A stretch of 64,000 nt of DNA from Microthyrium microscopicum (GCA_010405405.1 MU004230.1:3707119-3771118); one strand, 5' to 3'; positions 12,923-41,369 are shown, counted from the stretch's first letter. Notes: generated by a model from the sequence alone, not told the origin. Made by a program: numbers and translations.

Positions 12923-14137
12923 CTATTGAATGTAATAGTCGACTACTTCGTCTCCATACCATTTACGCCCAACATCTTTGTGGCTTCGTATCCATTTCCT
13001 AAGTTGTGACTCGCCCAAATTATCCCATCGCGGATCCAAGAAACTGGAAACTGCATTCTCGGTAGCTTCCTGGCCATCTTCGTCTCGTCTCATTTTCCGA
13101 ACTGCTTCTGGCACACAGCTTCTGATTTCTGAGACGGTGAGGTTGGGAGGCAATCCCATGAAGAATGGAATAGAGTAACGATCTCTTTCTGTCGGTGCCA
13201 CTACACGATGCACAGTTGCTTTGACTGCCCCATCAGTCGCCGCTTCAAATGGATTTGCGAAATTCACGACGAAGGTACCAGGGATTGGGTTAGCTGCAAT
13301 CCAGTTTCCATCCTTGTCCAATACCTCAAGACCCTTTTCTTGTCCAACCTGATGTAGAAAAGTGAGAAGTCCACTGGAGTCCTTGTGAGGACCAACTCCC
13401 TGTCCAACTTCATCATTGGTGGCGGGGTATTTTACCAACTTGATACGATGTTGTGATGGTAGATATGTCTTTCGAGAAGAAGTCTGAGAATATGAGGTGC
13501 TTGATGTGATAGAGTCAGAGACCTGTCGAGAGGTGTCAATTCCGAAGATTTGGTCGAAGGTGCCCAATGGGATATCGAAGGCTTCTTCTACAAGGTGTAG
13601 AAAACGATAAGATAGGTCAGCCAGAGCGTTGTGATAACTGTTTGAACGTGTTATTTCCTATCACTATCACAACTTTTCAAGTCATACAGCTAATTACCTC
13701 TCCAAAGCAGATCTGAAGCCCGGGAGCTCCTCCTCAGTTGGCCATTGGTTTGGACCTCGCAACCACCAGTAAAGTTTGGAGAAATCTTTGCCCTCATGGA
13801 TTTCATTATCGTCCTTGTCATATATGACGGGCAATTCAGTTGCATAATCGAACTGTTCTCTGAGGTCTTGTTGGCCCAAAGTCACCTCTTCCGCAAAGCC
13901 ACTGTAGCCCAGAAAGTGCGGCGAATTTGATTTTGATAGCCTTGACTTGCTAGAGTTGGCAATATCGAAAAGAGAAGGAAGCTTTTCTGACAAATCTGAG
14001 ATGGTCTCTTCCGGTACACCATGACCTTTGATGTATAGGAACCCGACGTTGAAGAGACAATCCTTCAGCAGATCCAGAAGGGCTTGCTTCTGATTTGGAT
14101 CACTTGCCAATCGGAGATCTAGGAGCGGAATAGTCAT
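12923..14137 (-). CDS. 2-oxoglutarate/Fe(II)-dependent dioxygenase (IPNS/DIOX_N family)
   Basis: IPLLDL...GFLYIKGHGV N-terminus, GVGPHKD (HxD), HRV distal His, RYSIPFF; one intron 13638-13697. Confidence 0.92.
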
Positions 14138-14839
14138 AATGTAATTTCTTCCGTGTACGTTTCAACGTTGGACTGCCTCTGGGATGGTTGGAGGAAGATG
14201 CAGAAGTTAGGTGAAGGTGAGCCCACAAGGCGAAGATCTAAGAGGTTAGAGCAGTTTCTCTCCGCCCACGAGATCTCAATGGCGTCATTATGGCGAATCA
14301 TTCCATGTTTGAGAAGTCAATGAAGCTTCATAAATCATTCACGATAATAAAAGATCACGTCACAACGACCGGACAAGTGCGACTAAATTTTTTATGTTGA
14401 AGTATTCCAAGGTTGGCAGTGGAGATTGCTCAACCAGAATGAACATTATTCGAATGCAAATCCTATTAACCTGACAATTAAACCAACAAAGACAGGCCTT
14501 GCTGCTTCATATTGATGTATTGTGAAGTCATATCCTTACTTAGTATATTTCATGTTACGATAATGCAAAGAGGCTAAGGAGGACTGAAGTGCTCAGTGAA
14601 CAGTACCCTACGATAGATGTTGACCTCAAGATCACTAAAACGATTGCTCAGTAAGAGACAATGCAATGGACCATTACAGACGTGTAGGCGACAGATCATT
14701 GGGTACATTGATTTTTAATCTATAACAACAAACATCTGCTGCTTTCTTCTGAGGCGAACCCTGTTCCTGCCGCGCAGCTTCCTCGAGACACATTCGAAGA
14801 GAGTCATCGTAACGCCATTCCAAGTAAATCTTTTGCAAA

Positions 14840-15652
14840 TTACTCTGACATTTTAAGGCCTGCCAAACCAGCGAGAGCAGGGCAAGAGTACTCTTTGAAC
14901 AGAGAGACTGGGTCGAACCACGTGTCTAGACGCTTGATGCGGTACTCGTCGTCTAGCTCCGCAACTGACACGCCGAATATCTCGACCAAACCTCCGTGGG
15001 CTGGAATGATAACTTCCTTGCCTTCGCTAGTAAAGTAGTTAGCAGTTATAGAAGGCTCAACACATGGAGCAGTACTCACCGGTTCTTGCCCTTATAGTCG
15101 GCCTTCATTTCTCCCCAGTGTCGCCATTTGAAAGCAGCCTTTGGTGGTCCACTATAGACCTCGATAACCTCCCAAGCAAAGGTAGGCATGCATCGCTTGA
15201 AGAGCTTGTGAGATTCGACAAAGTCGATATGCTCGGGGCTATAGTACTCATTCGGGCTGATTAGAGCATTGTAGGTACCAGTCTTCGTCATGCTCTCAAC
15301 ATCTTGGAGCTTCTTTCCGTTGACGTAGAACTCGTACTCAGTTGGATGAACAGTACGATACTGTTTGGTGTCTGTCTTGAAAGAGGCCTCGATCTCCCAG
15401 TTCTTGACTAGATTCTCGACAAGATTGGGCAGACTTCCGATTTGATGGTCTGCGGTCTTTGCTACTTAGGAATCAGCTTGTGTGCCTGTATAAACTGAGC
15501 TTAAACTTACTGCGTGATTGGTATTTGCGAGTGTTGGAATAGTCTGGGGCGCGACCAATGCGCCATGTCGCTGTATCTTTGCAGACTGCATCAGGATCAG
15601 TCATGAAGTCGGGTAAGGCTGGAGAAGCCTGAGCTTTGTTTCCGCTGGTCAT
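14840..15652 (-). CDS. pathogen-related protein (PRP) homolog, SnoaL/NTF2-like fold
   Basis: Spliced ORF (2 introns): LPDFMTDPDAV..WRIGRAPDYS, LVENLVKNWEIEASFK, GTYNAL, FAWEVIEVYSGPP..AFKWRHWG, TWFDP. Confidence 0.8.
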
Positions 15653-16808
15653 GGTGATTGATTGTGGTTTGTTCTTCGTGGAGTTGGAGTTGGGTTTGCT
15701 TGTTACACAATCGGGCTAGGTTGTGTCTATGTGGAATGTTGGTTCGAGAGTTGTTTGTGGGTCAAGCAGTCAGCTACAAGAACTTAAATACTTTAGCTTA
15801 ACGAATTGGGTGGAAAGAGTAGCACGGTTTCAGTGAATGTTTGCCTAGAAGTCACCAGTAGAGCTGTCACCTTAGCGGCATCACTGTGGTTGTTGAGGTA
15901 GCTAACCTTCAAGTTACATGGCAAGTGCTTATAGCACTACCTAAAAGACTAAAAGAGAAGTTGAAGATTATGTCACCCTAGCATTAACAGATATCTGGTT
16001 GGAGCCTAGCTCATGCACGCTCTTTCATAGAAGTGAAGGTTTTGCTTTGCCTTCCAGTTACATATGAGGAACTATATATTCTTAGAGACTTGGTAGTGCC
16101 ATGAGTGAAGTGATGGTCTATATGAGCTGCAAGAATTGTCAAGCAGGTAGTAGAGGCGGCATTGTCGAATACAATATTTGCAAACATTTTGATATGCCAA
16201 TCCAAAGTCACTTGCAAACGAGCATTTGATTGCTTCAATCGATTCTGTTGTAAATTTCAAAGAGATCTGTATTCAAGTCAGTGAACTTTCGAAATCTCCA
16301 GAAGCTTGTTTAATCTGTTTCGTTGGAGCTATTCTGTGACTTTAGTTTCGTTCTTGGCGGGAGTAACTAGAATCATCTATCTTACGCCAAAGTATACCTC
16401 TTGACTGCTGCAGGAGGGCGAACGTGGCGAGTTGTAATGCGAAGATGTTATTATGGCGTCTAAAAAACTCAAGAACTGTAGAGATATATCTCAAACAAGC
16501 TTCAAAAAGAAGCTTTCAGAGCTTTGTGCAGTAGTTTATCGATCTATACCACAAGTGGATAAAGTCATTGATATGATTTGTTGGAAGGATGAGACCAAAA
16601 ATAGCCAAAAGGACCTGCATGAGATGTGCATGATCGTCCTTCCGACAGTACATCTATGCTGCTTTTGGAGTTCCCAAAGGAGGAATCCGCTGCCATGATA
16701 TTCATACGGCGCAATCTTGTGGGTTTTGCGCGTCGATTTCATTGCCGTTAAAGCCGTCATGGCGACGTCGTTTTCTTTGAAGCATTACACGCCACATACA
16801 GTGTCGAG

Positions 16809-18832
16809 ATGCGGCTTTTTCTATTGCTCTGGCAGACTATGCTGGCCTACTCAGTCGCGAGTGAAAATGTATCTTTTACAGTCAACTTAACATGGGAAGA
16901 TGCCGCCCCAGACGGCGTTAGTAGGAAAATGATACTTGTGAATGGTACTTCACCCGGTCCAACTCTCTTCATAAACCAAGGAGACAGCGTCAAGGTACGA
17001 GAGCTGCTGAATACTCGCGACTCCAGAGTTGTAGGTAGCGATTCCATGGCTGACAAGATCTGTAGTTTCTAGTTTACAACAATCTGCCAACCAACACCAC
17101 AATACATTTTCATGGCATCACCCAGCTCAGAACGCCTTGGTCTGATGGTGTCCCTGGTATTAGTCAAAAGCCCATCCTACCTGGGGAATCGTTTCTCTAC
17201 CAATGGACAGCTGATGACTATGGCACGGTAACTTGCATGCCAAGCTCATCTACATGCTTTCACTAAAACTTCTCAGTACTGGTATCATGGCCATTTCCTC
17301 TCCGACATAAGCGATGGCTTGTTTGGTCCGATACATATCGATCCTGATCCCAAACAACTCCTTCCATATAATATCATCGACGAGTCAGAGACCGAAGTTG
17401 CGGCCATGACAAAAGCAGCAACTCATCCTCAACTCGTCACGATTTCAGACTGGAGCCACGTAACTTCAGAGGATATCTTTCGAGCGGAACTGGACACCAA
17501 TCTGGATCTGTACTGCAGAAACTCGATTCTGATCAATGGACGAGGCAATGTCAATTGCCTGCCTATATCGACGTATATGTCTCTCGCAGCGCCCGCAACA
17601 CTGCAGGCTCTGATTGGGCAGAACATCACTGCGCAAGGCTGCTCACCCCCTGGCATCTCCCTAATCGAAGGTGACTTTAAATTCAATCTGAGTGCTTTAC
17701 CGCCCGAACTATCATACTCGTGTGACGCGACCACTGTCGCTCCGTCTATATTCCATGTCCGCAGCGCCGATCGTTGGGCCAGCTTCAATTTCATCCTGAG
17801 CGCGTCAGTGCAGACGCCCATGATATCAATCGATGATCACGAGATGTGGGTCTACGCCGCGGACGGGTCTTTCGTAGAACCTCAACGCGTCGATGGTATG
17901 CTAATCTTCAGCGGGCAGCGTTACTCGGCCCTGGTTAGACTGAAGGATAATCCTGCTTTCGACACGTACACTATGCGCTTCTCCAATGTGGGCGGCAACC
18001 AAATTATCTTCGCTACGGCTTTGCTCTCCTACAATTCAAACAGTACAAATCTAGTTGTTGCGCCAGACTCTTATGCCCTCTATGACCAGGCTGGAAACGC
18101 AACCAACAGCTCAGCCGTCACCCTCGACCCGAGCACTCTTGTACCATATCCTGCAATCACGCCGGCGCAGCAAGCCGACGCAACGCACATATTCAAAGCC
18201 GGCCGCGCCGGAGCTGCCTGGCGCTGGACCATAAGTGCAAGTCCCCATTCCGTCTACTCTACCGTAAACAAAACGCTCAAGCTGACCAAATAACCAGGGA
18301 AATGCCTCATATCCAACCACCATATCAACTGACAATCCCTTGCTCTTTAATCCCAATGGTTCCACAGCTATGAACTCAAATCTCACGATCCGCAGCATCA
18401 ACGGCTCCTGGGTAGACATCATCGTGCTCACCGACCCAGGGAGTCAAAATCCCACTCAGCCACCACATTCATTCCATAAGCATAGCAACAAGCTCTTTAT
18501 CATCGGCAGCGGAACAGGCGACTTCAACTATACATCCGTCGCGGAAGGGATGCAAGTACAGCCCGAGTCCTTTAACCTAGTCAACCCTCCCTATCGCGAT
18601 AGCTTCATATCCAGTCCAGCCTGTAAGTCCAGACATTTTATTTCTCGAATGAAGCTAATGAATACAAGCTCCCGATGCACCTACCTGGATCGCTATCCGC
18701 TACCAAAGCATGAATCCAGGAGCCTTTCTCTTGCACTGCCACATCCAGCCGCATCTTGCAGGTGGAATGGCGATGGTCATGCTTGATGGCGTGGACAAGT
18801 GGCCAACAATTCCTGCCGAGTATGGCGGGTAG
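16809..18832 (+). CDS. multicopper oxidase/laccase (Abr2/GIP1-like pigment, phenol-coupling type)
   Basis: Signal-peptide-like N-terminus; Cu motifs [27 protein letters not shown]; 4 introns; stop TAG 18830-18832. Confidence 0.92.
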
Positions 18833-19051: not shown

Positions 19052-21355
19052 TCACGAGTCCCCAAAGCCCATGGTCATTGCATGTAGATCGGGTGTGTTG
19101 ATATGGGAGGAAGAGGTCAAGAATGGTGAGATGAGAGACCCGCTATAGAGATCATCGGAAGAGGGGACGCTCGAGAGAACAGTCGGCGATGTCTGCTGCT
19201 CTTCTAGCATTGACCCGAAGACATCCCAGTTCATAGGATCGTTGTTGACCACTGTGCATGGGGGCTGGGCCATCATACTCTGCAGATTGTTGGTGAGTGA
19301 CTGGGAAATATCCTTTGCAGCAATAGATGTTGAGGAAAAAGATTCAAAGACAGCCTGGGCACGTGTGAGGGATTCTAGTGCCCGTGGAACCTTGGAGCCC
19401 AGATTGTCGGAATGGATGTAAGCCATGATTGTCACGGTAGCGTTCCACAGTGGCTGTAGAATCTCTGACCAGCCAAAGAGTACGTCGGATACTGAGCAGA
19501 CGGTGTGGGCTGTGTCGACAATGATTATTGCGTGGTGGAGAGCGCTTGATATGTGTACTTCTACGTGTGGCTGTTTAGAGTCTGGAGGAGTGATCATGCC
19601 GCAGTTATCGCCGGCATTAGGATAGCGTAGACGAATGAATGGGCGTTGGATGAGCGTGTACACATTATGGAAATGTAGCTCCAAGAGCACCGCTTGTCGC
19701 TGCAACCAAGCCGGTTTGGTGAGGTCACGACCAAATTCGAGACTCTCACTGTTGTCAGAGGCATTGCCAGCACGGCTTAGCAATAATTCTGGAGGCAGCT
19801 GGTCGTGCCAGACCTCTAGATCTCCGAGAGCTGAGGAAATGTCAAGGGCGTGATGTTCGATAGCAACCGGACTACTGCCGCCGTCGTCCACAAGGTCTGC
19901 AGTGGAAGCGCATGCGCCAAGATCTGACACAATGACAGCTAGTTTGGCCAAATGGTTGGAATATGTGCAAGCATTCACACCTTCTTCACGGTGGCTGGCA
20001 GAGGAGACATAGCGGGCAAGTGCATCCTCGGCAGGAAACGGACATCTGATGAGGCTCTTCTGGCTGGCCGCCGGCATATCGAGCTGTAGCGAGCACTGAA
20101 TGTCCAGGGAGAAGAGCATCCACCACAATTGCATATGAGCAGTCCTTTCGGCCTCGCTTAGGTGACTCGCTGGCGGTCGATGAAGTTTGGCAATGTAAGC
20201 CTTGCGGACAGTGATGCCAAGGAGATTGTAGGCTTCCCTAAAAGCATTACCTTTCATAAGATAAAGTGCCATAAGAGCGTGGCATCGTAGAGCCTCTAAT
20301 GTTACGTCTGTGTTGGTCCTCATGCGCTGACGACAGCGATGGAAATATTCAAGGCCAGGCCATGTGGCTTCCACTGGTGATGCTAAAGCGGAGTACTGCT
20401 GGGTGGATGGCTGAAGACCTAGTATTCTCGTAGCCATACCAGTGGCATGGCTATGCTGCATCCCTAGAGCAATCATAGAATCAGCTAGGGGGCTTCCGTT
20501 CATATATCCATCAAACATTGCGGGTGGTGGCAAGGTATCGAGCTCTACGAATTCTGATTCGCTAATGATTTGCAGAAATGGGTGGCAAGCATCCCAGAAG
20601 ATCCGAAGATAATAGCTCCGCTGGCTCTGGGACAGAGGGTTTGAGGCGAGAAAGCGACCTTCCGAGGGAATAGCAGGATGTGGGAGCTGCGCGAAGAGAC
20701 TGCCAGAAAGAGTTGAGGTGCTTGAGTGCGAGAAGGCTGGCAACCCACTGGCAAAGAAGCTCTGCGCGTGAGAGGCAAGATTAAAGGGCTCCTTGTGATT
20801 ACTTTCTGGTGGGAGTACTGTGGCCCACCAGTTCTCCTGGTCCATGGTCATGCCAGAGGGAACAGTAGATGAACTATTCGGGCTAATACTGGCTATGGAG
20901 CTGCTGTTGCTGGCGCTATTGCAGCCGCTCGAGTCATTGATTGACTGAGGGCAGTTAGGGGAGCCGGCATGCTCGGTAGAGCGAGTTGGTGATGGCGAAG
21001 GCGATGTTGAGGGGACCTTTGACGACGATTCAGCGGTGGTATATTCGGGATCGCCATTGTGTGCTTGAGAAAAGCGACGAGTAGCGTAGGACACAATGCA
21101 TTTTGCTTGGATGCCGACGCAGTTCGCGCAGGGTTTCTGCTCGTCACACTTGATACGATGCAGACGACACCTGTCACAGGCCCTGGCTGTCTTGTGCCGT
21201 TTGGAAAGGGGTAGAACTGTGTGTTCTGGACTAGAGTTGGAGTTGGAGATGGAGGTGGTATGTGCGTTGCTATTTTTCCGAGAGGCCTTGGAACGAGCCG
21301 ACCCGGAGCCGGAGCCTCTAGACTTTGCAGGCGTGGCAGGAAACCTGTGAAACAT
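19052..21355 (-). CDS. Zn(II)2Cys6 transcription factor with fungal TF middle-homology domain
   Basis: ACDRCRLHRIKCDEQKPCANCVGIQAKC binuclear cluster; LWWMLFSLD region; intronless, 767 aa. Confidence 0.93.
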   Translation of the reverse strand: MFHRFPATPAKSRGSGSGSARSKASRKNSNAHTTSISNSNSSPEHTVLPLSKRHKTARACDRCRLHRIKCDEQKPCANCVGIQAKCIVSYATRRFSQAHNGDPEYTTAESSSKVPSTSPSPSPTRSTEHAGSPNCPQSINDSSGCNSASNSSSIASISPNSSSTVPSGMTMDQENWWATVLPPESNHKEPFNLASHAQSFFASGLPAFSHSSTSTLSGSLFAQLPHPAIPSEGRFLASNPLSQSQRSYYLRIFWDACHPFLQIISESEFVELDTLPPPAMFDGYMNGSPLADSMIALGMQHSHATGMATRILGLQPSTQQYSALASPVEATWPGLEYFHRCRQRMRTNTDVTLEALRCHALMALYLMKGNAFREAYNLLGITVRKAYIAKLHRPPASHLSEAERTAHMQLWWMLFSLDIQCSLQLDMPAASQKSLIRCPFPAEDALARYVSSASHREEGVNACTYSNHLAKLAVIVSDLGACASTADLVDDGGSSPVAIEHHALDISSALGDLEVWHDQLPPELLLSRAGNASDNSESLEFGRDLTKPAWLQRQAVLLELHFHNVYTLIQRPFIRLRYPNAGDNCGMITPPDSKQPHVEVHISSALHHAIIIVDTAHTVCSVSDVLFGWSEILQPLWNATVTIMAYIHSDNLGSKVPRALESLTRAQAVFESFSSTSIAAKDISQSLTNNLQSMMAQPPCTVVNNDPMNWDVFGSMLEEQQTSPTVLSSVPSSDDLYSGSLISPFLTSSSHINTPDLHAMTMGFGDS

Positions 21356-23157: not shown

Positions 23158-24849
23158 ATGGCTGACCTGCACGCAGCCGACGGGGACCTGAGCAAAGTCA
23201 GCAGCTCTGTCAGTCCATACCAACTTCATCTCGTTATCATTGGAGCCGGTCTCGCTGGTCTTTCAGCTGCCATCACTACCAGTCTCGAGGGCCACCGCGT
23301 CACCGTGCTTGAGAAGGTTTCGCAGCTCCAGGAAGTGGGTGCTGGTCTCCAAGTCACGCCAAATGCTACCCGCCTTCTGAAGCGTTGGGGGCTTTTTGAT
23401 GGCTTACGGAAACGAGCTGCTGAGCCTTCGTCCTTGACTGTCCGCAGGTACGATGGCACTGCTGTGCTCGCTCAAGAGCATAACTTCCAAGAGAAGATGC
23501 AAGAACGATACGACGCGCCGTTTTGGGATCTCCATCGGGCGGACTTGCAGAGGGCTCTAGTTTGTCGAGCGATCGAGCTTGGCGTTGAAATGCGACTCGA
23601 TTCTGAAGTAGTTGACATCGACTTCGCAAAGACGAACGTCAGGCTGAAGGGAGGAGAGTTGGTGCATGGAGACGTACTGCTGGCTGCAGACGGCCTATGG
23701 TCGCGCAGCCGAAGTCTTTTCATGCAGAAAGATCTCCTCCCGAATCCAACCGGCGATTTGGCTTGGCGTATCATTCTCGATCTTGATGATCTGAAGGACC
23801 CAGAGCTTGTGGAGTGGGTGTCGAAGCCAACCGTAAATTTCTGGATCGGTCCTTATGCGCACGTTGTGGGTTATTCTGTCAAGGGGGGGAAGCAATTCAA
23901 CTTGGTACTTCTCTCACCTGATGATCTTGGAAAAGATTTGAGCAGAGCGCAGGGTAATCTCGATGAGATGAAAAAATTATTTGCAGCATGGGACCCAATG
24001 TAAACAAACCCCTTTTAACTTGTTCCAGGAGAGAAGGAGCTGACCGCCCTAGATTAATAAAATTTCTTGACTGCGTACAAAGTGTGGACAAATGGAAATT
24101 AATGCACAGTAAGTCGCTGCTCAAATGCTACAAAGCTACATTTTAACAATTTTAAAGGTCCCACGCTTGACAATTGGAGAAACGAGGAGAGTAACTTTGT
24201 CATGGCGTGAGTCAACATGTCTTCGTTCCCGACGCAATTGACAACTCTCCAGAGGCGACGCCTGTCACCCAATGCTTCCTTATCTTGCTCAAGGGGCCAA
24301 TTCTTCTCTCGAAGATGGTGCTGTACTCGGACGACTCCTTGGCCATGTCAAAGTAGCCGCCGATATTCCAAACGCCATTAAATTGTATGAGGACTTGCGT
24401 AAAGAGAGAAGCCGCTCCATCGCCCTCGAAACATTCAAGCAGGTCTGTCCTTCCATTGACCTTTGATAATCGCATGGCATGCTGACATAACCATAGCGCG
24501 AAGCCTTTCACATGCCTGACGGGGAGGAGCAACAACAACGAGACGCCATTTTCGCCGCTGCGTTAGAGAGTGGGCCGGTACCTTCCTTCAGTAGTCGCTG
24601 GTATGTGCAAGATAATTCCCTAGTTGCTTGGTAACTCACATTCGTGGAAAATCGTAATGCTAACCAACAACTGTCAACAGGACGTGTCCGACCTTTCAGC
24701 CGTGGCTGTACGGTTACGATGCGTATGCTGATGCTGACCGAGCGGTCAGCGCGGTCAAGCCTGCAGTGGAAGGTTTAATGGGCCAACTGGCATCTATGAT
24801 GAGGCGACTGATCGAAGGATGGCACGGTTTTCTACGCAGACTATGGTAG
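23158..24849 (+). CDS. FAD-dependent monooxygenase (salicylate hydroxylase/OpS4-like)
   Basis: GAGLAG, EVGAGLQ, ADGLWS, GDACHPMLPYLAQGANSSLEDG and C-terminal QPWLYGYDAY; 5 introns; ATG 23158, TAG 24847-24849. Confidence 0.92.
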
Positions 24850-28338: not shown

Positions 28339-29130
28339 TCAAATCTTCGCGTTCGCTCCGAAAACTTGTAGTCGTTGCTCCAGTGGAAGCTTCTGCGGCT
28401 TCTCTCCAGGTGCGCTTCCCTCCTTGGGAACGCCAAAAACCATCTGCGACTTCAGCGCCCATTGCGATGGTACATTCCACGTCTTTTGAACTTCAGCATC
28501 GATGAGAGGATTATAGTGCTGTAGGTTCACTCCTAGGCCCAAGGCCTCGAGTGCAGTCCACATGTAGTATTGGTGCATGCCGCTGCTGTGCGCGACCCAC
28601 TCATCTGTCTTGTCTTTGTAGATGTCTGGCGCGTGCTCCTTCATTGCTTCAGCGCAGGACAGGTCATCCCAGAACAAGATGGTTCCATAGGCATTGGCGA
28701 AGTTGGTGATCCGATCTTTGGTTCCTCCTAGCCAGCGCTCCTCGCCAATCTTTGCGAGTAGCGCGTCGCCAGTGATGGACCAGAGCTTCTTGTGGTCATC
28801 CCCAAACACAATTGTTAGCCGGGTAGATTGATTGTCAAAAGCGGATGGGACTGTGAGGATTGCAGCCTCTGCAAGCTTGACAATGGTGCTGTCGGGCACC
28901 GTGGTTTTGGCGTCAAGAGCGCGGATAGTGCGACGCTTCTGCGTAGCCTCGCTGAAGCCCATTGTGACGATTGGAGACGCCATCGTGAGATTTCTGAAAC
29001 TTGCGAGACTTGTTGATGGTATCGGTATTTTGGTTGAGGCACGAAATGTGGAATGAATAATGAGAGAGTTGACAACTATCCCAGATGATTTTGGTAGCCG
29101 AGAAACGAGACCAACGAACCTCTTCAACAT
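28339..29130 (-). CDS. nitroreductase-family protein (Frm2/Hbn1-like)
   Basis: RRTIRAL, PSAFDNQSTR, AYGTILFWDD, LGVNLQHYNPLID, QMVFG; second in-frame ATG at 28983. Confidence 0.88.
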   Translation of the reverse strand: MLKRFVGLVSRLPKSSGIVVNSLIIHSTFRASTKIPIPSTSLASFRNLTMASPIVTMGFSEATQKRRTIRALDAKTTVPDSTIVKLAEAAILTVPSAFDNQSTRLTIVFGDDHKKLWSITGDALLAKIGEERWLGGTKDRITNFANAYGTILFWDDLSCAEAMKEHAPDIYKDKTDEWVAHSSGMHQYYMWTALEALGLGVNLQHYNPLIDAEVQKTWNVPSQWALKSQMVFGVPKEGSAPGEKPQKLPLEQRLQVFGANAKI

Positions 29131-29569: not shown

Positions 29570-31117
29570 ATGAAGTTCGTCAGACGGAACTTTTCGACCT
29601 CCCCATCGACAGCTATCGCAAGGTCAGAGGAGAAGCTCTTTTTCGACAAAGATGGCTATCTAGAATTTGCACCAGACGACCCCGAAAATCCAAAGAACTA
29701 CTCATTTGGGCGCAAATGCTACATCACCGCTATCGCCATTTCCCTCGTCATGAATGCCACTTTCTCCTCATCTGCGCCATCCGGTACTTTCCAGGGTATT
29801 AGCGACGACCTTGACATCTCCGTTGAAGCTGCTGGCCTCGTCACTACACTCTTCCTCCTTGGTTATGTTGCCGGTCCGTTCTTTTGGGCACCATTGTCAG
29901 AATTTTATGGTCGCCGCTGGATCTTCTACGTCTCATTCACTCTCTACCTCGCCTTCGGCTTCCTTTGCGCCTTTACACCTAACTTCGCCGGGCTCGTGGT
30001 CGGCCGTTTTCTGACTGGCACCTTTGCTAGTGCTGCGTTGACAAATGCACCTGGCATCCTCGCAGACATCTGGGGACCTGTGGAGCGAGGCAACGCCATG
30101 ATTCTTTTTGCGACAATGACATTTGTAGGACCCGCACTAGGGCCAGTAGTCAGCGGTTTCCTTCAATTGAAGGAGACATGGCGTTGGACTTTTTACGTAC
30201 TGCTCTGGATGGCGGGAGCTACCGAGCTTCTGCTTGTGACTCTCCCAGAGACCCTCCCAATGATGGTTCTACGTAATAAAGCCCGCCGCATACGCAAAAT
30301 CCCTGGCAATGAGAGCGTCAAAGCCCCAGTCGAAGCATCGGATCGTTCTTTAGGTGGCATTTTCAAAGTTGCGTTGACACGACCTTGGAGACTTCTCATC
30401 GATCCAATCAGCTTCTTCGTCGCAATTTATTATGCAGTTGTCTATACCCTGCTTTACATGCTCTTCAGCATATACCCTATTGTGTTTCAGCAGAAGCGTG
30501 GTTGGAACAGTGGTGTTGGTGAGCTACCACTGATAGGCACTGTTGTTGGCGCGTGTCTAGGTGGCCTAGCACTGTTCATCAATAGCCAAGTACAGCAGAG
30601 AAAAGCCAAACCGGGCCACAAATCAGTCCCAGAAGATCGCCTTCCAGGCGCCATGGTTGGTGGAGTCATGTTTGCAGTGACGATATTCTGGTTTTCTTGG
30701 TCAGCCGAGTTCAACTCAGTGCACTGGGCTGTGCCAACTGTAGCAGGAACCTTCCTGGCAATGTCAATCCTGCTCATCTTCGTCGTCTTCATCAACTACA
30801 TCATCGACTCGTACCTGATGTACGCTGCCTCTGCCGTTGCAGCAAATACTGTTCTACGCTCTGCCTGTGCTGCAGCATCCCCCCTCTTCACGCATTATAT
30901 GTTCGACACGCTTGGTGTGGGTGGAGCTGGTTCACTCATCGGAGGCATAGGTGTGTTGTTGATGCCGATACCCTTCATCTTCTACAAGTATGGTGCTGCG
31001 ATCCGCGCGCGGTCCAAATTTGCGCCAACGGAGGAGACTATCAAGCCTGCTGTAGATGAGGAGAAGGCTATGGACAGCAGATCACACAGCAAGACCTCTG
31101 AGAGAGAGGATAACTAG
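29570..31117 (+). CDS. MFS drug:H+ antiporter (DHA1 family)
   Basis: DDPENPKN, WAPLSEFYGRR, GPALGPVVSG, PETL, PEDRL, SAVAANTVLRS; ~12 hydrophobic segments. Confidence 0.93.
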   Translation: MKFVRRNFSTSPSTAIARSEEKLFFDKDGYLEFAPDDPENPKNYSFGRKCYITAIAISLVMNATFSSSAPSGTFQGISDDLDISVEAAGLVTTLFLLGYVAGPFFWAPLSEFYGRRWIFYVSFTLYLAFGFLCAFTPNFAGLVVGRFLTGTFASAALTNAPGILADIWGPVERGNAMILFATMTFVGPALGPVVSGFLQLKETWRWTFYVLLWMAGATELLLVTLPETLPMMVLRNKARRIRKIPGNESVKAPVEASDRSLGGIFKVALTRPWRLLIDPISFFVAIYYAVVYTLLYMLFSIYPIVFQQKRGWNSGVGELPLIGTVVGACLGGLALFINSQVQQRKAKPGHKSVPEDRLPGAMVGGVMFAVTIFWFSWSAEFNSVHWAVPTVAGTFLAMSILLIFVVFINYIIDSYLMYAASAVAANTVLRSACAAASPLFTHYMFDTLGVGGAGSLIGGIGVLLMPIPFIFYKYGAAIRARSKFAPTEETIKPAVDEEKAMDSRSHSKTSEREDN

Positions 31118-31671: not shown

Positions 31672-34600
31672 TCAAACAGACCCCTCCAAAATAGCACATG
31701 CCTTTACCACACTCTCCGACACCTCGCGAATATTCGCCGCATCAAAGACTTTAAAATGGTTGCCAGGGATATCAAAACAACGCACCGAAGATCCAATCAC
31801 CTCCTCCCAGCCCCACACCGCAGTCCTCGGGTCCGATCTATCCTGCAGCCAAGCATTCTCCACAGACTGGGGATTCATGACAGCCCGCGGATCGCTAGTA
31901 TCCCCATTCCGCCGCCAGCCATCTCTTGAGCGAAGCAAGATGGCAGGCGGTGATGGACGATGCGAAAAGTGCGTGGGCCTATGCGCGCCCAAAAGGTCTG
32001 CGCATGATAAAAAACTTTGACGTGTGAGTTCGCGGATGACATTGCCCATTGCGTTTGGTGAACTTTTCCCATTTCCAGTGACAGCTTCAATGATATCAGG
32101 GGAGAGAGGCTGATGGTCGAGTGGGGGCGGCGAGTCGATTAGAATGACGCCTTTGACGGCCTGTTCCAATGATGTTAGGATCCTTGCTACTTCAAAAGCG
32201 ACGACGCCACCAAAGGACCAGCCGCCGATGAGGCAGGGGCCTTCGGTGGTACGGCGAATTGTGTTTGCGTAGTTGGCAGCCATCTGGCGGAGGCTGGACC
32301 ATGTATCGGCAGTGTCAGTGAATTTGGGATCGTGTAGGGCGTAGGCTTGGCGGTGAAGTGACTGCAAGCGGTGGTATTGCATGCAGACACCGCTGCCATC
32401 GTGAACGAGAAATAGAGGTAGAGCGTTGGAGTCTGCAGCGGTGCTGGTTCTGATAACTTCAGGCTGCTCGGAAAGTTTAAGAGCACGTTCCACCTTTTTC
32501 AGCATTGCGGTATCAAGCTTGATATCGGTTTTTGGTGATTTCGGAATGTCGAAGTCGGCAGAAAGATCTATGCCAGAGTCCTTGCGGGAGCTGTTCTGTA
32601 ATGGAGACTCCGTTACTTCTTTGACTTGTTTTTGTGTGCCGTGCTATATCAAATGAGTGTTAGCCAAGCACGAACCTTTCAAAACAACGGACTCGGCTTA
32701 CACCTAGGAGATCTCTGGCAGAGCACATACCAGTCTTTCGACGTCGCCAACCGTGCGACATATCGAGAGGTTTGCGGCTGATGTAGACTTTCCATCCTTG
32801 TAAATCTCCTCCAGACGAGATGAAAGTTCAAATATCATAAGAGAATCAATTCCGAGATGCTGCAAATCTGAGCTTGAGGAGATAGCATCTGGGCTGATGC
32901 CACAGGTATCGGCGATGATGGCAGAAACGTCGCTCCTGCTGCTAAGGGTGCTGCTTGGGGAGCTTGGGGAGCCTGGGGAACCAGGAGAGCCGGGCGTGCT
33001 AGGGGAGCTTGAAGTCGTGAGGCCTGGAGGCGGAGTGATTGACTCGGATGGAGAGACTGAGGAATCGAAAAGTCGCTCAACGTCCCCAACTGTCTGGCAG
33101 TCCGCCAAATCTGAGATACTGGCCTGGGGAAACTGTGTTGCAAGTTCGGCTTGTAATTCGATCATCATGAGTGAATCAAATCCAAGACTGTCAAGGCTTG
33201 CAGCTTCTGATAGTGCCAATAAATCCATGCTGCAAGTGTTCGCAATCATGGCCCTGACCGATGGACCAGATGCAGCAGGTAGCAATCTCGGGACTGGAGT
33301 CCGAGCCGAAGGAGCATGAGACGATATAGTCACCGCGACTTCCGGCTTGCTGACTGAGCCACCCGAAAGCTTCTTTGCAGCAATGGCGAGAGCTCTGCCA
33401 ATCTTTGTGAGTTCAATTTGCTGAAACTCCATGCCTTTGAATACTGCCAGGACTCCTTGAGAGTCGAATGCATAGGCATCCGCAATTGTCAACCCCTCGC
33501 TTGCAACATTGTTAAGGGTACCTATAATGTTAGACTACTGCATAAACATTGGAAGCCGTGCTACTTACAATGTACTTCAAAGGCGTCCCCAGGAGCGAGA
33601 GACCTCTGAATAACAGTGGCAGACGCGACACCCTTACACATGCACAGAATCTGAGTACCAACTCTGACATTTGCAGCAAAGCCTGCCACATGCAACAAGA
33701 CATCCATGAAAATGGCGTTTGCAGCAGGTAGACTCGTAGTACCTAGGCGATTGTCTGGGTATTGGCATATGGCGTGGGTGTCTCCAGTTGCTTCGTCGAT
33801 GCGAATTGACTGCACGCGCTGATATGGCTCGGAATAAGTGACCACGCGTGTAAAGACCATTTCATACATGGCTCGCTTCATAAAGATCTCCTGCTCGGCT
33901 CTGTTTACATTTGACAGGATTTGCTCTGTTTTCCGAGATAGCATGGGAGCAATACGGGCGTATTTCGTCTGCAACGTCTGGTTTAACTTGCGCTTCAAGA
34001 CTCCCTTGCAGTGAGAAGTGGTGTGATGTGGATCAGATGTGTTGTAAGAGAGTATGTCAAATCCGTAGGATATTCGAGAGTCGTTGAGAGGTTTGAGAAC
34101 AACTCTGACCTGCAAAACTTTTAGTACGAAAGAACTTGTACGACCACAGCGACCAGAGAAAATCGGAACTTACCGTTATAGAAGCATCATGGTACAGCAA
34201 TGGTGCAACGTAGGCAATCTGAGACAGACTCCACACATGACTCTGTTGCGATTCTGGCTCAAGGTCCTTGACTGCCGACAGTGCAATCTCATGGTAAACT
34301 GAAGCGGGACATAGCGCATGTTCCGCAACGAGATGGCCTGTGATAAAATCTTTGAGCAGGTACAACGGTGTGTCGTATATCGCAGACCCATCATCCAAAG
34401 TCGGCTGGCTCACTGTTTCAGCGATGAAGCTATCACGTCGAATATCGGGCTGAGCAGCCTCAAAGTCGACCTTCTTTGTTGTGGCTTCCGACGGATAGTG
34501 AACGCCAAACTCTTGCTTCGAGAATGGGATGCCAGGGAGATCAACCAAGACCGGACTGGATTTGCCAGCAAAGGCATTTCGCCAATCACTACCACTGGAA

Positions 34601-37600
34601 GTTGTGTATAAGTTACACAAGAGCTGTGCCAAGGTGGTAGAAGGTGAAGTGCCTTTTCGGAGAGTAGGTAGGAGGCTAACCGACGCTTTGTCAACGCATT
34701 GGCCCAGCATAGGAAGTAACGAGGGGTGCGGGCCAATCTCAATCCATCTGGTTGCTTCAGATCCAGTGTTGGTAGTGAGAAAGTCTTGAACGCCTTTGTG
34801 AAAGTTTACCGTCTGTCGGCAGTGTAGTGCAAAATACTCTTTTGTAAAGGCAGTTTGACCAGCCTCAACAGCGCGTCCAAGCACGTTCGAGACAACAGGG
34901 ATCTTGGGCAGACCTAATTCAATAGTGGTAACAAACTGAGTAAGCTCATCGAGGATAGGGTCTACTGCCTTGGTGTGATAGGCCATAGGCACATCGAGCA
35001 GCTTGCTCTTGACCTTGAGGCTCTCTCGCAGATGATCCTTGAAAGTTTGGAGTTCCTCAGCTTGGCCACCAACAACGCAGTCATTTACACCATTGTCGCA
35101 TGATATTGATAGACTGGGGAAGAGCTTGGATGTCTGGACCAAGCCTTGTACAGTGGAGGCGCCAGTGTTGACAGCGAGCATGGAAGTCTTCTGAAGCTCA
35201 CATTTCTCCATCATCAATTGCGCACGACGAGCGACAAGACCAAGCCCGCTGAGTATATCGAGAACTCCAGCAGTGACTAGAGCAGCGTATTCGCCAAGGC
35301 TGTGGCATTACAGTTAGCAAAGGACTTGTTACACACCGAAGAGCCTCACCTGTGGCCTACAACGGCAGTGGGAACAATGTTCCAGGAAATGAGAAGCTCC
35401 GCAAGGGCAACCTCCAAAACATATATTGCCGACTGGAAGGCTTGTAGCTTTTCACCCTCTGTTAGATCCTTGAGAGCGTTTTCGGTCTCAGTAGCGGTGA
35501 TAATTTGGACACATCCAGGATAGTTGCGCTCTTTGAGATATGCGTCGCACTTCCAAACGGTTTTGGCGAAGCTTTCGTATGTTTCCATAAGCTCAGCACC
35601 CATTCCCAAGTACTTTGAAGTGTTAGCAATCAGGACTAAGACGAGAGGCAGTTTCCAAACTTACCTGTGATCCCTGTCCAGAAAATGCAAAGACGGCATT
35701 TGGCTCCTTGTTCGCCGACTCGGAGATGTGGTGAGGTATTGCTGCCCTGAGCTTCTCCGCCAAATCATCATAGGAGGTGGCGACTACTGCGATACGCATA
35801 TCGTATATTTGGCGGCGGCTTGTGCTTGTTGCACAAATATCCCGGAGCGAGAGACTTTTTCCATTTTCCATAATATATGAGACGAGGTCATCGCGAAGTT
35901 GTGTTAGAGAAGCGATGCTCTTGGTAGAGCATCCAAACACATAGCTGAGCGGGCTCTTGCTTCCTGCCTCAACGGGTGGTCCTGATGGGATATACTCTTG
36001 TAAAAGTACAGCTCCATTTGATCCTCCAGCACCAAAGTTGTTCAGCATTGCCATGCGTGGCTTACCATCGATTTGTGGCCACGAGGCTCCATCTCGGCTG
36101 ATCACAGCACCATCATCGCCAAGGTTTCGGATGCGTGGGTTCAACACCTTGAGGGAGATTTGAGAGGGGATGTGGCTGTGCTTCATCATCAGGACAAGCT
36201 TCGCCAGGCCGGCAGCGCCAGATGCGGCTTCACAATGACCAATGTTTGCTTTGATGGATGTCAAGTGAAGAAGATTTTCCGGTGATCTGTCCTGACATAG
36301 AACGCGCCGCACACTCTCTAGCTCCACTGGGTCACCAGCTTGGGTACTGTCCAAAATTAGATTAAATGCTCCGCATAGAGATAACGGCAAATACTGACCC
36401 AGTGCCATGTAGCTCAATCGCAGTGACCTAGCGATATGTCAGTAAAGGCGTCTACTTTGAAGGAATTCAATAGAGCTTACCATGTGAGGGTCAATTCTGG
36501 ATTTTCGGAACATGTGCTTGAATAACTCCTCTTGAGTAGGAACATGAGGATGCGTAATAGAGTGCGTGTTGCCGCTCTGATTGATTTCCACCGCCTTGAT
36601 GATTGCATGAATGCGATCGCCATCTGCTATGGCATCACTGACTCTCTTGATAACAAAAGCGCCACAGCCCTCAGCACGACAGTACCCATCAGCAGAGGCA
36701 TCAAACGCTTTGCACTGCCCTGATGGGCTCAGAAAGTGCGCACGGTCAAGGCCTAGATACATGTCGGGGCTGGTAATTGTGTTGACGGCACCAACAAGCG
36801 CAGAACGGCAATCTCCTGCAATAATTGATCTGGCGGCTTGATGTAAGGCGACTACAGAAGATGAACAAGCTGTGTCCAGGGTAATGGACGGACCACTCCA
36901 GCCAAAGACGTAGGAAATGCGTGCACTCTGAAATGTACGCAGTGTACCTGGGCTGTAATAAACATCGATATCGTCTTTCATGTTCGCAGGATAATCTAGC
37001 GTGGCGTTGCCAATCCAGCACCCAAAGGTATCACGGTCAGTGGAAGGCGTCGTGTCCGGCACGTAGCCAGAGTTCTCAAGTGCTCTGAATGCTGTCTGCA
37101 GCATCACGCGCTGTTGCGGGTCCATTGAGCGCGCTTCACGTGGGGATATGTCGAAAAGCGCATTATCAAACTGGAATGGATTCTGAAGAAAGTTGCCATA
37201 TCTGGTACCGAGGGTACGATTAGAGCTGCCCTTTTTCTCGCCCTTGGCGTGATAAAAGTCGTCGATGTGGAATCTTGACTCTGGTATCTATTTGGGTAGC
37301 AGATCAGTGACTGGACAATCAAAAGTGGGACAATATATTGCCATACCTCAGAGCATGAATTCACGCCGCCAACCAAATTTGCCCATAATGACTCAGTATC
37401 TGGTGCGTCTGGCAGATCTACCGCCATGCCAACGATTGCAATATCATCTGCGGCCAGCGTGGAAGCTTCGCTGTATGATTTTCGGGAGCCAGCGAGCGCA
37501 ATTACATCTAGGACTCTTACGTTCCTCGGAAATTTGAATGCAGATGTTGACATGCCATAACCGGGTCCCATGTTTAAAATTTCGATCTCCGCTCCTGCGG

Positions 37601-38636
37601 CAGATGAAGCAGAAGCCTTCTGTACATCAGCGAAGATGGAGTTTTGGACAGACACCCAGTCGACAGGCTCAAGCATGATCATTTCCAAAATGTCACTGAT
37701 TATAGCGCCTGCGTTCTGCATTAGTTTGTGAATAATCAACAATCAAAAGTTGTGCTTACCAAGTGGTTTTGTGTCTTTGTAGTTAATTTGTTTGCCATCA
37801 ATCGTGGATAGTAAAGGAGCAGCAGAAGTAATAGATGTCGACATTGAGGGACATCGCTGCATAAGATCTTCATATATGTTTTGCTTGAGAGGAGCTAGTT
37901 CATCGCGAACATGGTAGAGGGAAAGCACGTTGGTCGATCGTGTGCGGCACTCGGAGGGAACGTGTTTGGAAATGAATTCCTGGAGCTTTTCACCAGTCCC
38001 ACTCAGGGTCACACAGTTCGGCGAATTGATAGCAGTCACGAAGACTGTTTGATCAGACGTCGATGTCGAGGCAGCAATGATGTCTTCAGCACGCTTGGCT
38101 GTAATACCATCAATGACAATGCTCCATGGGCTGCTTGGAATACAGGCGTGGTGGCTCAAGTAAGATTTGCGATAACTTTCGCTGCGGATGCCGAGCCAGA
38201 CGGCAACGTAGAACAGGTCTTGAGCTCTCGAGAGGAGTTCAATCGAATTGCGAGAGGTCGAAACCACGGTGGCAGGGAGGAGTCCAGCGCAAAAGCCAGC
38301 GGCTTCGAGTAATTGGCCATGTTGTTGTGATTGGCCGAGGTATCTTAGGATCTGAGAGAGATAAAGGGTTGAGTGTTGTACCAGCACGTTTTGATAATAG
38401 CATTCCTTGGGGGCGAGGAGTTTTGAGGGAGTATCGAAATCCCGGAGGTCGACATCATGAGAGAGAATGCCGGACTGGATGGCATGGGAGATTTCAGTGT
38501 GGAAGATGTTATGGCAAGCTTGTAAGAGAAGTTGGGACTCTGGCAGCAAGGCATCGCGAGCTGAAGCGTCTAGAGATAGCTTGGAGAAGAGAACATCGGA
38601 GCCAAGGCCGGCAAAGACAGGGACGTGAAAAGACAT
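31672..38636 (-). CDS. non-reducing iterative type I PKS, SAT-KS-AT-PT-ACP-ACP-TE (orsellinic acid synthase-like)
   Basis: [54 protein letters not shown] and DVLLH; ACPs LGFDSL and LGIDSL; TE GWSFGG and PGNHF; no KR, ER or CMeT; about 9 introns. Confidence 0.95.
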
Positions 38637-39655
38637 GGTTCAAATCATTGGATGTAGCAGGCTGAGCTTTGTGCCTGTACCAATAGACAATCTGATGGGA
38701 GAATAAGGCTGGATTAAGACTTCAACTAGAATGTTATTATACTACCTACCTAGCATACATATGTAGCCGCAAAGGTTTGATACTTGCCGACAAGCATACC
38801 GAGTAAGCGCTGGCTTAGCTCAAAGGCATACCATAGTCACTTAGGAGACATTTGCGCTCTTGACAGCGCAAAAGGAACGATATAGAGAATTGCCTAAGAC
38901 GGTTAGATCGAGATCATCCTCAGTCGGGAGAGATCGATTGTGGCGAGAGACATGTTAGCACGCCGTTAAGGCGTTCCCCAAGGAGAAATAGTCCGGGAAG
39001 GTTTGGAATCCTTCTGATCCGTCGCGACGGGCCGGGCCTAACCACGTTGACGTTCAATTTCCATGAAGCTCAACTAACTGATAGGTGGGTGCGGCGTTCT
39101 GCATTTCGGCCTGCTCGAGCTGCGACGATGCGGCCTGATGTCATTTTGCTGGACTGAGATTAGTAATTGCTCGATTCAGACTCCTTGTGGACTCAGTCGT
39201 CTAATTCGGAAGCAGATGGTGATAGAAAGGTACGATATACAGTGAATCATGAAGTTAGGAGGTTGATGTTGTTTAGCCTCCTCCCACGCTACGAATGTGG
39301 GGGTTCCAGGGGGAAGGGGTAGTGACGTCCTGCCATCTTCCCTGGCCTAATTTCCTCCCATCTCCCTACTTTCTCTTGATTTATCGTGTTATTACCTGCG
39401 TATGGACATGAAGATATCGACAGAGCAAAAGCAAAAGCCATATGTCTCTCCAGTTGCTATAGATAGTTCTGAAGTGCTTGGCGCCTCCACTGTCAAATGC
39501 GGCCGTTGTCGGGCCTAGCCTTAACTACTAATAGTGAATTCTATGCACGTTCGAGTCATCTTGTCAAGGTCGGGTAGGGCGCGCCATGATGCGACCATTG
39601 ATACTGCCAATTGTTGCAATGGCTGGAACTTGAACTACAAAAATTCACCGCAAAG

Positions 39656-41369
39656 ATGAGTGTTCAAACGGTAACAGAAAGCGATGTCTACGAACTTCAA
39701 GATATTAGTGCTCATCGAGGCTATTCGAGAGCCAATATCGATGGACCATCGACCCCTGGAAATGAGATACAAAGAAGTAGACGCAGTCTCTCCTACGCAG
39801 AAGGCGACAATGCGGTACTTAATTCTACCTCGACGGCCAATTCTCAGCGAGCGATTGGTGACACCACGCCAACTAACTCAAAGAGGGCGATCTTGATTAT
39901 ACTCCAACTCGCCATGATCACTTCATTGAGCTCACTGTCCTCTGGTATCATTACCGTTGGCCTGCCGCAGATAGCCAAAGACGTGAATCTTGAAGAAAGG
40001 CTATACTTGTGGCCATCGTCTGTCTTTTCCCTGACAGCGGGTAGTACACTCCTGTTAGCTGGCGCTGTCGCTGATATCGTGGATACACGATTGATGGAAC
40101 TTACAGGGTGCACTTTACTCGGGATCTTCACTCTAGCACTTGGATTCAGCCAAACTGGTATCCAGCTTGTCGTCTTTCGAGCTTTGCAAGGCATCGCAAT
40201 AGCTATACACTGGCCGTGTAGCGTTTCGTTGGTAGCTCAATACATACCAAATGGAAAAGCCAGGAATATTGGATTCGCTTGTCTCGGACTGGCTATGCCA
40301 CTAGGATTCTCCGTAGGACTACTCCTCGGCGGCTTTCTTGTCGACTCGATTGGCTGGAGAGTGGGTTTCTACATCACTGGTGCCATTATGCTCGTGCAGT
40401 CGTTCACTGGGTATAGAATCGTCCCGGCAGGACCCAAAGCTCACAATATCATGTCTAGGCTCTTGAAAGAGCTTGATTGGATCGGCGCCATGATTGCCTG
40501 TTCAAGTCTTGCCATGTTCTCATATGTGCTTGCGATCTTGAGCGCAGACAGCGACAATATACGAGAGCCTTCCGCCATTACAATGCTAGTCTTCAGCACT
40601 GTGCTCATGATCAGCTTCCCAGTATGGATGAGATTTCAGGAAGGTAGAGGTCGGCCTGCTTTGGTTCCAAATAAGCTATGGAGGAATCTGCCCTTTACCT
40701 CCATTTGCGTCATGACAATTTTGACAACCGGTGTGCAAAATGCAAACGAACTATTTTCAAGCTTGTAGTAAGTTCGAAATAATGAAAATAACATCAAAGT
40801 ACCTACTAAACAATCGCAGCTTCCAAGAGGTACAAGAGCTCTCTGCTCTTCAAGCATCTCTTCGACTCATGCCTTCAACTGTCATCGCTATTTTCTTGAA
40901 CTTCACAACAGGTTCTCTCATCCATCGGACTCCAGTGTTTTGGCTTATGCTGATTTCCACTATCTTAACCGCTGGCTCTCCACTTCTCATGGCATTGATC
41001 AATCCAGCATGGTCGTACTGGAAAGGTGCATTCTTCGCCCAGTCACTTGCACCACTTGGTGGCGACATATTATTCACTGTCGGCTTACTTATTGTGAGTG
41101 AAGGCTTTCCAGACAAAACACAGGCACTTGCTGGCGCGGTCTACAGTACACTGTCCTTTTTGGGCGTCTCCCTGGGCACCAATCTAATGCAGGTTGTCTC
41201 ACTCTTGGTTACCAAAGGAACGCAATATCGGGACAAGTCTTCACCAGGCGCGCTCCTGCAAGGTTATCAAGCTAGCTTTTGGGCTATGTTTGCACTCACT
41301 ATGGCTTGCTTAGTGATCTGCTTTTGTGGTCTTCGAAATGTTGGGAAGATAGGTCTGAAGCGAGAGTGA
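39656..41369 (+). CDS. MFS efflux transporter (14-TM, DHA2/aminotriazole-resistance-like)
   Basis: ITVGLPQIAKD, LLLAGAVAD, FRALQGI, GWRVGFY, LDWIGA; intron 40765-40819; divergent from the PKS. Confidence 0.9.

Follow-up and report, generated by a model that had tools for sequence, protein, structure and literature searches.

We report a ten-gene cluster from the leaf-dwelling fungus Microthyrium microscopicum that we consider, on balance, to be an intact and transcribed cluster that builds a hydroxy-(bi)benzoquinone of the oosporein/phoenicin type from orsellinate. The cluster lies at 12.9–41.4 kb of a 64,000-nucleotide stretch of DNA (GCA_010405405.1 MU004230.1:3707119-3771118; hereafter the window). 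Judged from sequence, its product is most likely a red two-ring quinone pigment of this type, and probably phoenicin or a hydroxylated relative. Pfam domains and reading frames identified ten genes, and every gene type listed in an initial annotation of this DNA was found where that annotation had placed it. The ten genes are:

12923..14137, minus strand: 2-oxoglutarate (2OG)/Fe(II) dioxygenase, two exons (Pfam DIOX_N 3.8e-23, 2OG-FeII_Oxy 8.5e-18)
14840..15652, minus strand: small protein resembling pathogen-related protein (PRP) or SnoaL, three exons (ESM-Atlas leads only)
16809..18832, plus strand: MCO1, a divergent multicopper oxidase of 607 residues, five exons (Pfam Cu-oxidase_3, Cu-oxidase, Cu-oxidase_2)
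19052..21352, minus strand: Zn2Cys6 (Gal4-type) transcription factor of ~766 residues, single exon (Pfam Zn_clus 1.7e-9, Fungal_trans 5.2e-12)
23158..24849, plus strand: putative OpS4-type class A flavin monooxygenase (FMO) of 469 residues, salicylate-hydroxylase-type (Pfam FAD_binding_3)
25273..27409, minus strand: LAC2, a classical ascomycete laccase by its sequence features, with a signal peptide (Pfam multicopper oxidase)
28339..29130, minus strand: nitroreductase-family flavin mononucleotide (FMN) oxidoreductase of the Frm2/CinD type, within an RNA contig (Pfam Nitroreductase 2.6e-18)
29570..31117, plus strand: major facilitator superfamily (MFS) transporter 1, single exon, within an RNA contig (Pfam MFS_1 5e-38, weak TRI12 match)
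31672..38636, minus strand: non-reducing polyketide synthase (PKS) of 2149 residues, ten exons, with the Pfam domain set of starter-unit acyltransferase (SAT), ketosynthase (KS), acyltransferase (AT), product template (PT), two acyl carrier proteins (ACP) and thioesterase (TE), in the order SAT-KS-AT-PT-ACP-ACP-TE
39656..41369, plus strand: MFS transporter 2, two exons with an intron at 40768-40819, open frame (Pfam MFS_1)

The stop-to-stop frames with the Pfam matches run at 12923-14161 (2OG dioxygenase), 16752-18786 (MCO1), 19052-21361 (Zn2Cys6 factor), from 23050 (FMO), 25273-27430 (LAC2), 28339-29148 (nitroreductase), 29555-31117 (MFS1), 31672-38639 (PKS) and 39602-41369 (MFS2).

The cluster is transcribed and spliced over the region that was compared with RNA. 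Positions 21500-41400 were set against the contigs of one public run, whose RNA label is a guess. We treated the run as complementary DNA because GT..AG / CT..AC joints, and a loose end resembling an adapter, appear in its contigs; contig depth is unsuited to ranking genes. Spliced contigs cover 30 of the 30 bins across this region. They confirm four introns of LAC2 and carry the GT..AG joint of the MFS2 intron. A single 13.5-kb contig (28157-40820) spans the nitroreductase, MFS1, the spliced PKS and MFS2 despite their differing strands; either adjacent transcripts overlap or the assembler merged separate ones.

The PKS is intact. Our gene model, with nine introns placed by homology-guided junctions, is a single open frame of 2149 residues whose translation retains GFCAG, DTACSSS, HGTGT, GHSLGE, two DSL motifs and GWSFGG. 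Pfam recognizes SAT, the N- and C-terminal ketoacyl-synt domains, Acyl_transf_1, PKS_DH_N (the PT), two PP-binding domains and Thioesterase, and neither a C-methyltransferase (CMeT) nor an NAD-binding reductase domain. Eight of the nine introns agree to the base with joints in the RNA contigs. The catalytic HGTG of the KS is encoded by a micro-exon of 29 nt (36399-36427, minus strand) flanked by introns of 53 and 52 nt (36347-36480), and both joints around it are present in the RNA contigs. We rejected a pseudogene reading based on in-frame stops in the KS, as these stops fall in the two short introns around the micro-exon. Within the PKS leader, the RNA contigs also define an intron of 58 nt (38692-38749).

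KS similarity and domain set support a place for this protein among the orsellinate-type non-reducing PKSs. In a search with the KS exon that covered database proteins of 495–2000 residues, the best matches were from Aspergillus tanneri (73%; 474 bits) and P. macrosclerotiorum (70%), followed by many basidiomycete and ascomycete PKSs at 55–65%. This long list of ascomycete and basidiomycete enzymes scored ~340–445 bits; against the solved structures of CTB1 and norsolorinic acid synthase the KS exon scored 220 and 210 bits. One KS match carries the name 'Orsellinic acid synthase [Pseudocercospora fuligena]', though such names are automatic and the nearest relatives are uncharacterised. The top match to the KS in the PDB, 7zma, was set aside as uninformative: it is a bacterial trans-AT bimodule that scores over two KS copies.

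The closest relatives of the whole enzyme come from lichen-forming Trypetheliales. The PKS is 79% identical end to end to that of Viridothelium virens (KAF2228892.1), and the best representative for the AT-PT exon is likewise a Trypetheliales orthologue (77%). After these come A. tanneri (52%), Aphanocladium album (49% over the whole protein) and Nemania sp. FL0031 (47%), the last with its PKS and an FMO homologue on one contig. The A. album enzyme, at only about 49% identity, is the nearest one from Hypocreales. The strains sequenced as A. album MX95 are, according to the accessible part of one paper, probably Lecanicillium aphanocladii, a species reported as an oosporein maker (PMC13071199), and we infer that the A. 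album PKS is an OpS1 orthologue.

The second enzyme that carries the argument is the FMO, which we propose to be of the OpS4 type and a candidate decarboxylating hydroxylase. It is 100% identical to GenBank KAF2675308.1 of M. microscopicum, and its exon 1 shares 61% identity with a Beauveria 90% cluster that contains 'FAD-dependent monooxygenase OpS4 [B. bassiana]' (KAH8713100.1). Its nearest structures in the PDB are 8gsm, a 4-hydroxybenzoate decarboxylating enzyme (4e-111), and 8x38, a decarboxylative vanillate 1-hydroxylase. Its full-length identity is 85% to the protein of Penicillium manginii (whose 90% cluster also holds that of P. atrosanguineum), 78–82% to P. chermesinum, 81% to P. psychrosexuale, 82% to the lichen fungus Bogoriella and 85% and 74% to two Chaetothyriales. 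Identity is 59–62% for A. tanneri and Xylariales and 56–57% for Beauveria and Lecanicillium.

A maximum likelihood tree of 31 FMOs, chosen to span 120 matches together with the cluster members, agrees with this picture. The window protein falls in a 10-row clade (100/100) with proteins of Chaetothyriales, Trypetheliales and Penicillium. This clade is nested in one of 18 rows (90/90), which further includes Beauveria OpS4 with Lecanicillium, and Xylariales with A. tanneri. Within it, Penicillium nests with the Dothideomycetes apart from the Chaetothyriales (96/91, 98/92; short branches). Two metagenome scans with the FMO found no linked cluster: one returned no loci, and the other returned 26 loci, the best ~53–56% identical, none of the 26 with another cluster gene.

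Two oxidases accompany the PKS and the FMO. MCO1 (GenBank KAF2675306.1, to which its exons were mapped) has four copper motifs, including HFHG, WYHGH and an unusual HSFHKH, together with an axial Met and a signal-peptide-like N-terminus; its best PDB match is ascorbate oxidase 1aoz. It belongs to a very small family. A search of 5.8 billion clusters returned 12 proteins at E<=1e-20, the window's own included. Its relatives come from Chaetothyriales, V. virens, P. atrosanguineum, P. chermesinum and unnamed metagenome pieces and are 68–76% identical (60% for a short JGI fragment), after which the next matches drop to 39% and 35%. LAC2 has all the features of an ascomycete laccase sensu stricto: the four copper motifs HWHG, WYHSH, HPMHLHGH and HCHIMWHSSESL, an axial Leu, a C-terminal DSGI and a secretion signal. 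Its alignment to the best PDB matches, the ascomycete laccases 3sqr/3v9e, reaches their last residue; the C-terminal DSGL/I motif is one that we take to act as a plug.

The PKS, the FMO and MCO1 form a conserved neighbour set across Trypetheliales lichen fungi, Chaetothyriales and Penicillium, so that the cluster is not unique to M. microscopicum. We read gene spacing in other genomes from locus tags or accession numbers, assuming that accession order is gene order. All three genes stand on one 52,278-bp contig in V. virens (MCO KAF2228885, FMO KAF2228887, PKS KAF2228892). MCO1 and the FMO occur together on a 19,232-bp contig of Chaetothyriales CBS 134916 (FMO g6103, MCO g6105), 3 accessions apart in P. 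chermesinum and 9–10 apart in P. atrosanguineum. In A. tanneri the PKS (EYZ11_010885) adjoins the FMO (EYZ11_010884), and MCO1 was not found there. MCO1 (...306) and the FMO (...308) of the window are 2 accession numbers apart, as in V. virens.

The PKS and the FMO also share their history. The groupings in a FastTree tree of 26 PKSs, computed without support values, repeat those of the FMO tree, and the two genes therefore behave as a co-inherited pair. Four Penicillium species have FMO orthologues: P. manginii, P. atrosanguineum, P. chermesinum and P. psychrosexuale. The first two are recorded as phoenicin producers in the passages available from two surveys (PMC3233908, PMC7426331).

The initial annotation is in part borne out by these results. 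The enzyme it had called a non-reducing PKS without CMeT or reductase matches both the Pfam domain set and the 2149-residue model, and its orsellinate-type label agrees with the nearest KS relatives and the domains present. It had proposed decarboxylative hydroxylation of orsellinate, a role for the FMO made plausible by the shared, well-supported superclade with Beauveria OpS4 and by nearest structures that are decarboxylative hydroxybenzoate hydroxylases. It had also named a lack of synteny elsewhere as a reason for doubt, and the PKS, FMO and MCO1 genes are neighbours in other fungi. Finally, it had noticed no equivalent of OpS6, a glutathione S-transferase (GST), or of OpS7. Pfam found neither a GST nor a cupin among open reading frames of at least 100–110 residues at 11.6–64 kb, a scan that leaves shorter exons outside.

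What do these genes make together? Observed are the gene content, its intactness, transcription and splicing, and the PKS, FMO and MCO1 neighbourhood in other fungi; we infer all of the chemistry. The model is oosporein. In the scheme given in the available passages of two papers (PMC13450407, PMC10334655), OpS1 makes orsellinic acid, which OpS4 turns into 6-methyl-1,2,4-benzenetriol by decarboxylative hydroxylation; a hydroxyl is then added by OpS7, and the product is dimerised by OpS5 (laccase 2). When the methylbenzenetriol is instead dimerised directly, without the OpS7 step, the same passages give phenicin/phoenicin, or dideoxy-oosporein.

In M. microscopicum, the clade and domain set of the PKS suggest that it would make orsellinic acid. 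By homology, the FMO would then exchange the carboxyl for a hydroxyl to give 6-methyl-1,2,4-benzenetriol. A multicopper oxidase would turn the triol into radicals that couple through a carbon–carbon bond and, after further oxidation, yield a bibenzoquinone. Coupling is likely the work of MCO1, since this is the partner specific to the family, with secreted LAC2 as a helper or an alternative. With no OpS7-type hydroxylase among the frames scanned, the default product would be phoenicin; the 2OG dioxygenase, if it is part of the pathway, could add further ring hydroxyls. The Frm2/CinD-type reductase would interconvert quinone and hydroquinone, either as self-protection or to provide the reduced form. 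Export would fall to the two MFS proteins, and the Zn2Cys6 factor would turn the genes on. We propose a phoenicin-type bibenzoquinone, therefore, on the combination of the first two OpS enzymes with two oxidases, the lack of OpS7 and OpS6, and orthologues in phoenicin producers.

Several points weigh against this proposal, and the first concern the PKS. At its ninth intron, which lies before the TE, the RNA contig uses the donor at 32701 and removes 58 nt, and an in-frame TAG (32704-32706) then precedes the TE; a TE-less product in the RNA sample is possible. The alternative donor at 32730 (87 nt; intron 32644-32730, minus strand) gives the full-length reading ...ERL/HGTQKQ.... Sequence comparison marks this full-length PKS as the conserved form, because the 32730 junction is kept in the Trypethelium eluteriae PKS orthologue and the V. 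virens enzyme aligns end to end. The PKS tree included no experimentally characterised orsellinic acid synthase, and the assignment of the enzyme rests on source names, similarity and its partner enzyme.

The other adverse points concern the oxidases, the species and the sample. There is no Beauveria relative among the 12 MCO1 matches, and MCO1 is therefore probably not the OpS5 orthologue; either MCO1 or LAC2 may do the coupling. P. chermesinum and P. psychrosexuale carry the FMO and are not listed as phoenicin producers in the literature passages covered. Of 22 literature titles under the name M. microscopicum, 15 were covered, and none of these 15 is on metabolites. The RNA coverage concerns 21.5–41.4 kb, to the right of the first third of the cluster (12.9–21.5 kb). 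Similarly, linkage elsewhere is shown for the PKS, FMO and MCO1 only.

The last of these points is also what speaks for a chance arrangement, in which the genes would not belong to a single pathway. We give this very little credence. Linkage recurs in several taxa and in two fungal classes (for all three genes in V. virens only, for MCO1 with the FMO in Chaetothyriales, P. chermesinum and P. atrosanguineum, and for the PKS with the FMO in A. tanneri). Moreover, MCO1 is hardly ever found without the FMO orthologue, and all genes of 21.5–41.4 kb are transcribed in the same sample.

Of the readings that keep the genes together, the most serious rival shares the first two steps and differs in the end product. 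The triol could end as a monomeric hydroxytoluquinone, fumigatin- or spinulosin-like and formed via the 2OG dioxygenase, or as a melanin-like polymer. A pair of oxidases that includes a secreted classical laccase fits polymerisation, and the presence of a 2OG dioxygenase fits the hydroxytoluquinone route. A neighbouring PKS clade also includes P. maclennaniae, recorded as a spinulosin producer in the accessible part of one survey (PMC7426331). However, the PKS of P. maclennaniae reaches only 46% identity and falls in a different clade, whereas the close FMO and MCO1 orthologues belong to phoenicin producers. Fumigatin or spinulosin would in addition need an O-methyltransferase, and none was seen in Pfam scans of the window. 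We regard a non-dimeric end product as unlikely, though it is the alternative we would take up first.

A second rival places the divergence earlier. The PKS could release a depside like lecanoric acid or some other compound derived from orsellinate, which the oxidases would tailor in place of the benzenetriol. The SAT...ACP-ACP-TE layout is common to the depside-forming Preu6 and AN7909 in the passages available from one paper (PMC13476535), and orthologues of the cluster genes are found in lichen-forming fungi. Against this, the PKS is tightly co-inherited with a putative decarboxylating FMO of the OpS4 type. Depsidone formation needs a cytochrome P450, and the Pfam scan saw none within the cluster. 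We therefore judge a depside or related product improbable.

The weakest rival, that this is a dihydroxynaphthalene (DHN)-type conidial pigment cluster, takes its cue from the GenBank name of MCO1, from a PKS domain order that is also that of melanin PKSs and from an Aspergillus Abr-like oxidase as a 35% relative of MCO1, and it can be dismissed almost outright: Pfam scans of the window found no scytalone dehydratase, trihydroxynaphthalene (THN) reductase or Ayg1-type hydrolase, the KS has its nearest relatives among orsellinate-type enzymes and the partner FMO appears to be of the OpS4 type. The name itself, 'conidial pigment biosynthesis oxidase Arb2/brown2', goes back to ~35% similarity with Aspergillus Abr-type oxidases and probably mislabels what looks like a cluster-specific clade, because no other melanin gene is present.

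We therefore return to the phoenicin-type bibenzoquinone, and to a bolder version of it. The window could hold the Microthyrium copy of a so far undescribed phoenicin cluster, in which the rare MCO1 clade does the biaryl coupling and which has moved as a whole, horizontally, among Dothideomycetes (a leaf saprobe and lichen-forming Trypetheliales), Chaetothyriales and several Penicillium lineages. This is tentative, and we would sooner doubt it than rely on it. Horizontal movement would explain both the 74–85% FMO identity across classes and the placement of Penicillium among Dothideomycetes, with Chaetothyriales excluded; the two features together hint at horizontal spread. The literature searched, whose coverage leaves out most subscription journals, yielded no article describing a gene cluster for phoenicin.

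The identity of the FMO between a Dothideomycete, the lichen-forming Trypetheliales, Chaetothyriales and Penicillium is in any case an observation in its own right, and makes horizontal transfer of the cluster possible.

The remaining tailoring genes are described by motif and structure. The 2OG dioxygenase has the HxD...H and RxS motifs and an inferred intron at ~13638-13697, and its PDB relatives are plant- and fungal-type 2OG oxygenases. The nitroreductase-family protein matches 8cqv (2.8e-47), CinD (2wqf) and Frm2 (4urp) in the PDB. The small gene that had been labelled PRP keeps that label in part: its ESM-Atlas leads are 'SnoaL' (0.94) and 'Pathogen-related protein' (0.91), while the protein has no Pfam match and no PDB relative. 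The donors at its exon junctions are GTAAGT and GTGAGT.

The cluster sits between two very different flanks. G+C is ~20% up to ~11 kb, and gene-dense DNA at 43–52% G+C follows. The low-G+C block (1-11000), which resembles the outcome of repeat-induced point mutation, directly abuts the left side of the cluster; at the 2OG dioxygenase and PRP-like genes G+C is back up to 43–45%. The right flank beyond 41.4 kb is of a housekeeping type, with an RNA methyltransferase, a ribosomal S14/S29 piece, an Arb2-domain gene, an acyltransferase piece, a HET gene and a Pif1 helicase. The HET-domain gene is a 727-residue frame at 55684-57867, and the Pif1-type helicase (60066-62375) is split across two frames. 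Several frames of 110–400 residues at 44–55 kb have no Pfam match.

For the genome of M. microscopicum itself, one more polyketide pigment cluster is an ordinary result. Its wider interest lies in the compounds and in the distribution of the genes. Phoenicin and oosporein are redox-active fungal bibenzoquinones. The accessible part of one paper names battery electrolytes as one application of fungal quinones and reports phoenicin at g/L levels from wild-type Penicillium species (PMC9405642). A candidate cluster that combines a PKS, an FMO of apparent OpS4 type and a family-specific oxidase, and that occurs in recorded producers, offers a route to learning how the dideoxy compound forms without OpS7, and lets the coupling oxidase be identified. 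The patchy, high-identity spread over two fungal classes, lichen fungi included, is a testable case of cluster transfer.

How does the cluster compare with known systems? The PKS resembles Preu6 of Preussia isomera, for which the available passages describe an alternative 5' splice site just before the TE that leads to a TE-less frame (PMC13476535). The two differ in that the shorter intron gives the truncated form in the window and the longer one the full-length form, and in that Preu6 is, in those passages, a depside synthase. MCO1 resembles Abr1/Abr2 of A. fumigatus, from which its GenBank name derives, as these are three-domain multicopper oxidases beside a non-reducing PKS. Here the likeness is limited by ~35% identity to an Aspergillus Abr-like protein and by the lack of any other melanin pathway gene in the window. 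Much closer are the clusters of P. manginii, P. atrosanguineum, Trypetheliales and Chaetothyriales, with 74–85% full-length identity for the FMO, 69–75% for MCO1 and 79% for the PKS (V. virens); MCO1–FMO spacing varies among them and is shared with the window in V. virens.

The best-described relative is the oosporein cluster OpS1–OpS7 of Beauveria bassiana (Feng et al. 2015), which, as far as the accessible passages describe it (PMC13450407, PMC10334655), has five of its seven gene types in common with the M. microscopicum cluster: an orsellinate-type non-reducing PKS, an OpS4-type FMO, a Gal4-type Zn2Cys6 factor, an MFS transporter and a laccase-type oxidase. The logic would also be the same, from orsellinate via methylbenzenetriol to an oxidatively coupled bibenzoquinone. 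The GST OpS6 and the cupin-type hydroxylase OpS7 of that cluster have no counterpart among the window frames scanned, and the M. microscopicum cluster has five extra genes, for the rare MCO1, the 2OG dioxygenase, the SnoaL/PRP-like protein, the Frm2/CinD-type nitroreductase and a second MFS transporter. The chemistry put forward in the initial annotation, orsellinate followed by decarboxylative hydroxylation and oxidase coupling, remains the best reading. Its candidate new pathway is not supported in that form: the genes belong to a conserved family that includes the recorded phoenicin producers P. manginii and P. atrosanguineum, and the likely product is long known. The M. microscopicum cluster is best filed, from the genes it contains, as a variant of the oosporein-type cluster and not as a new kind.

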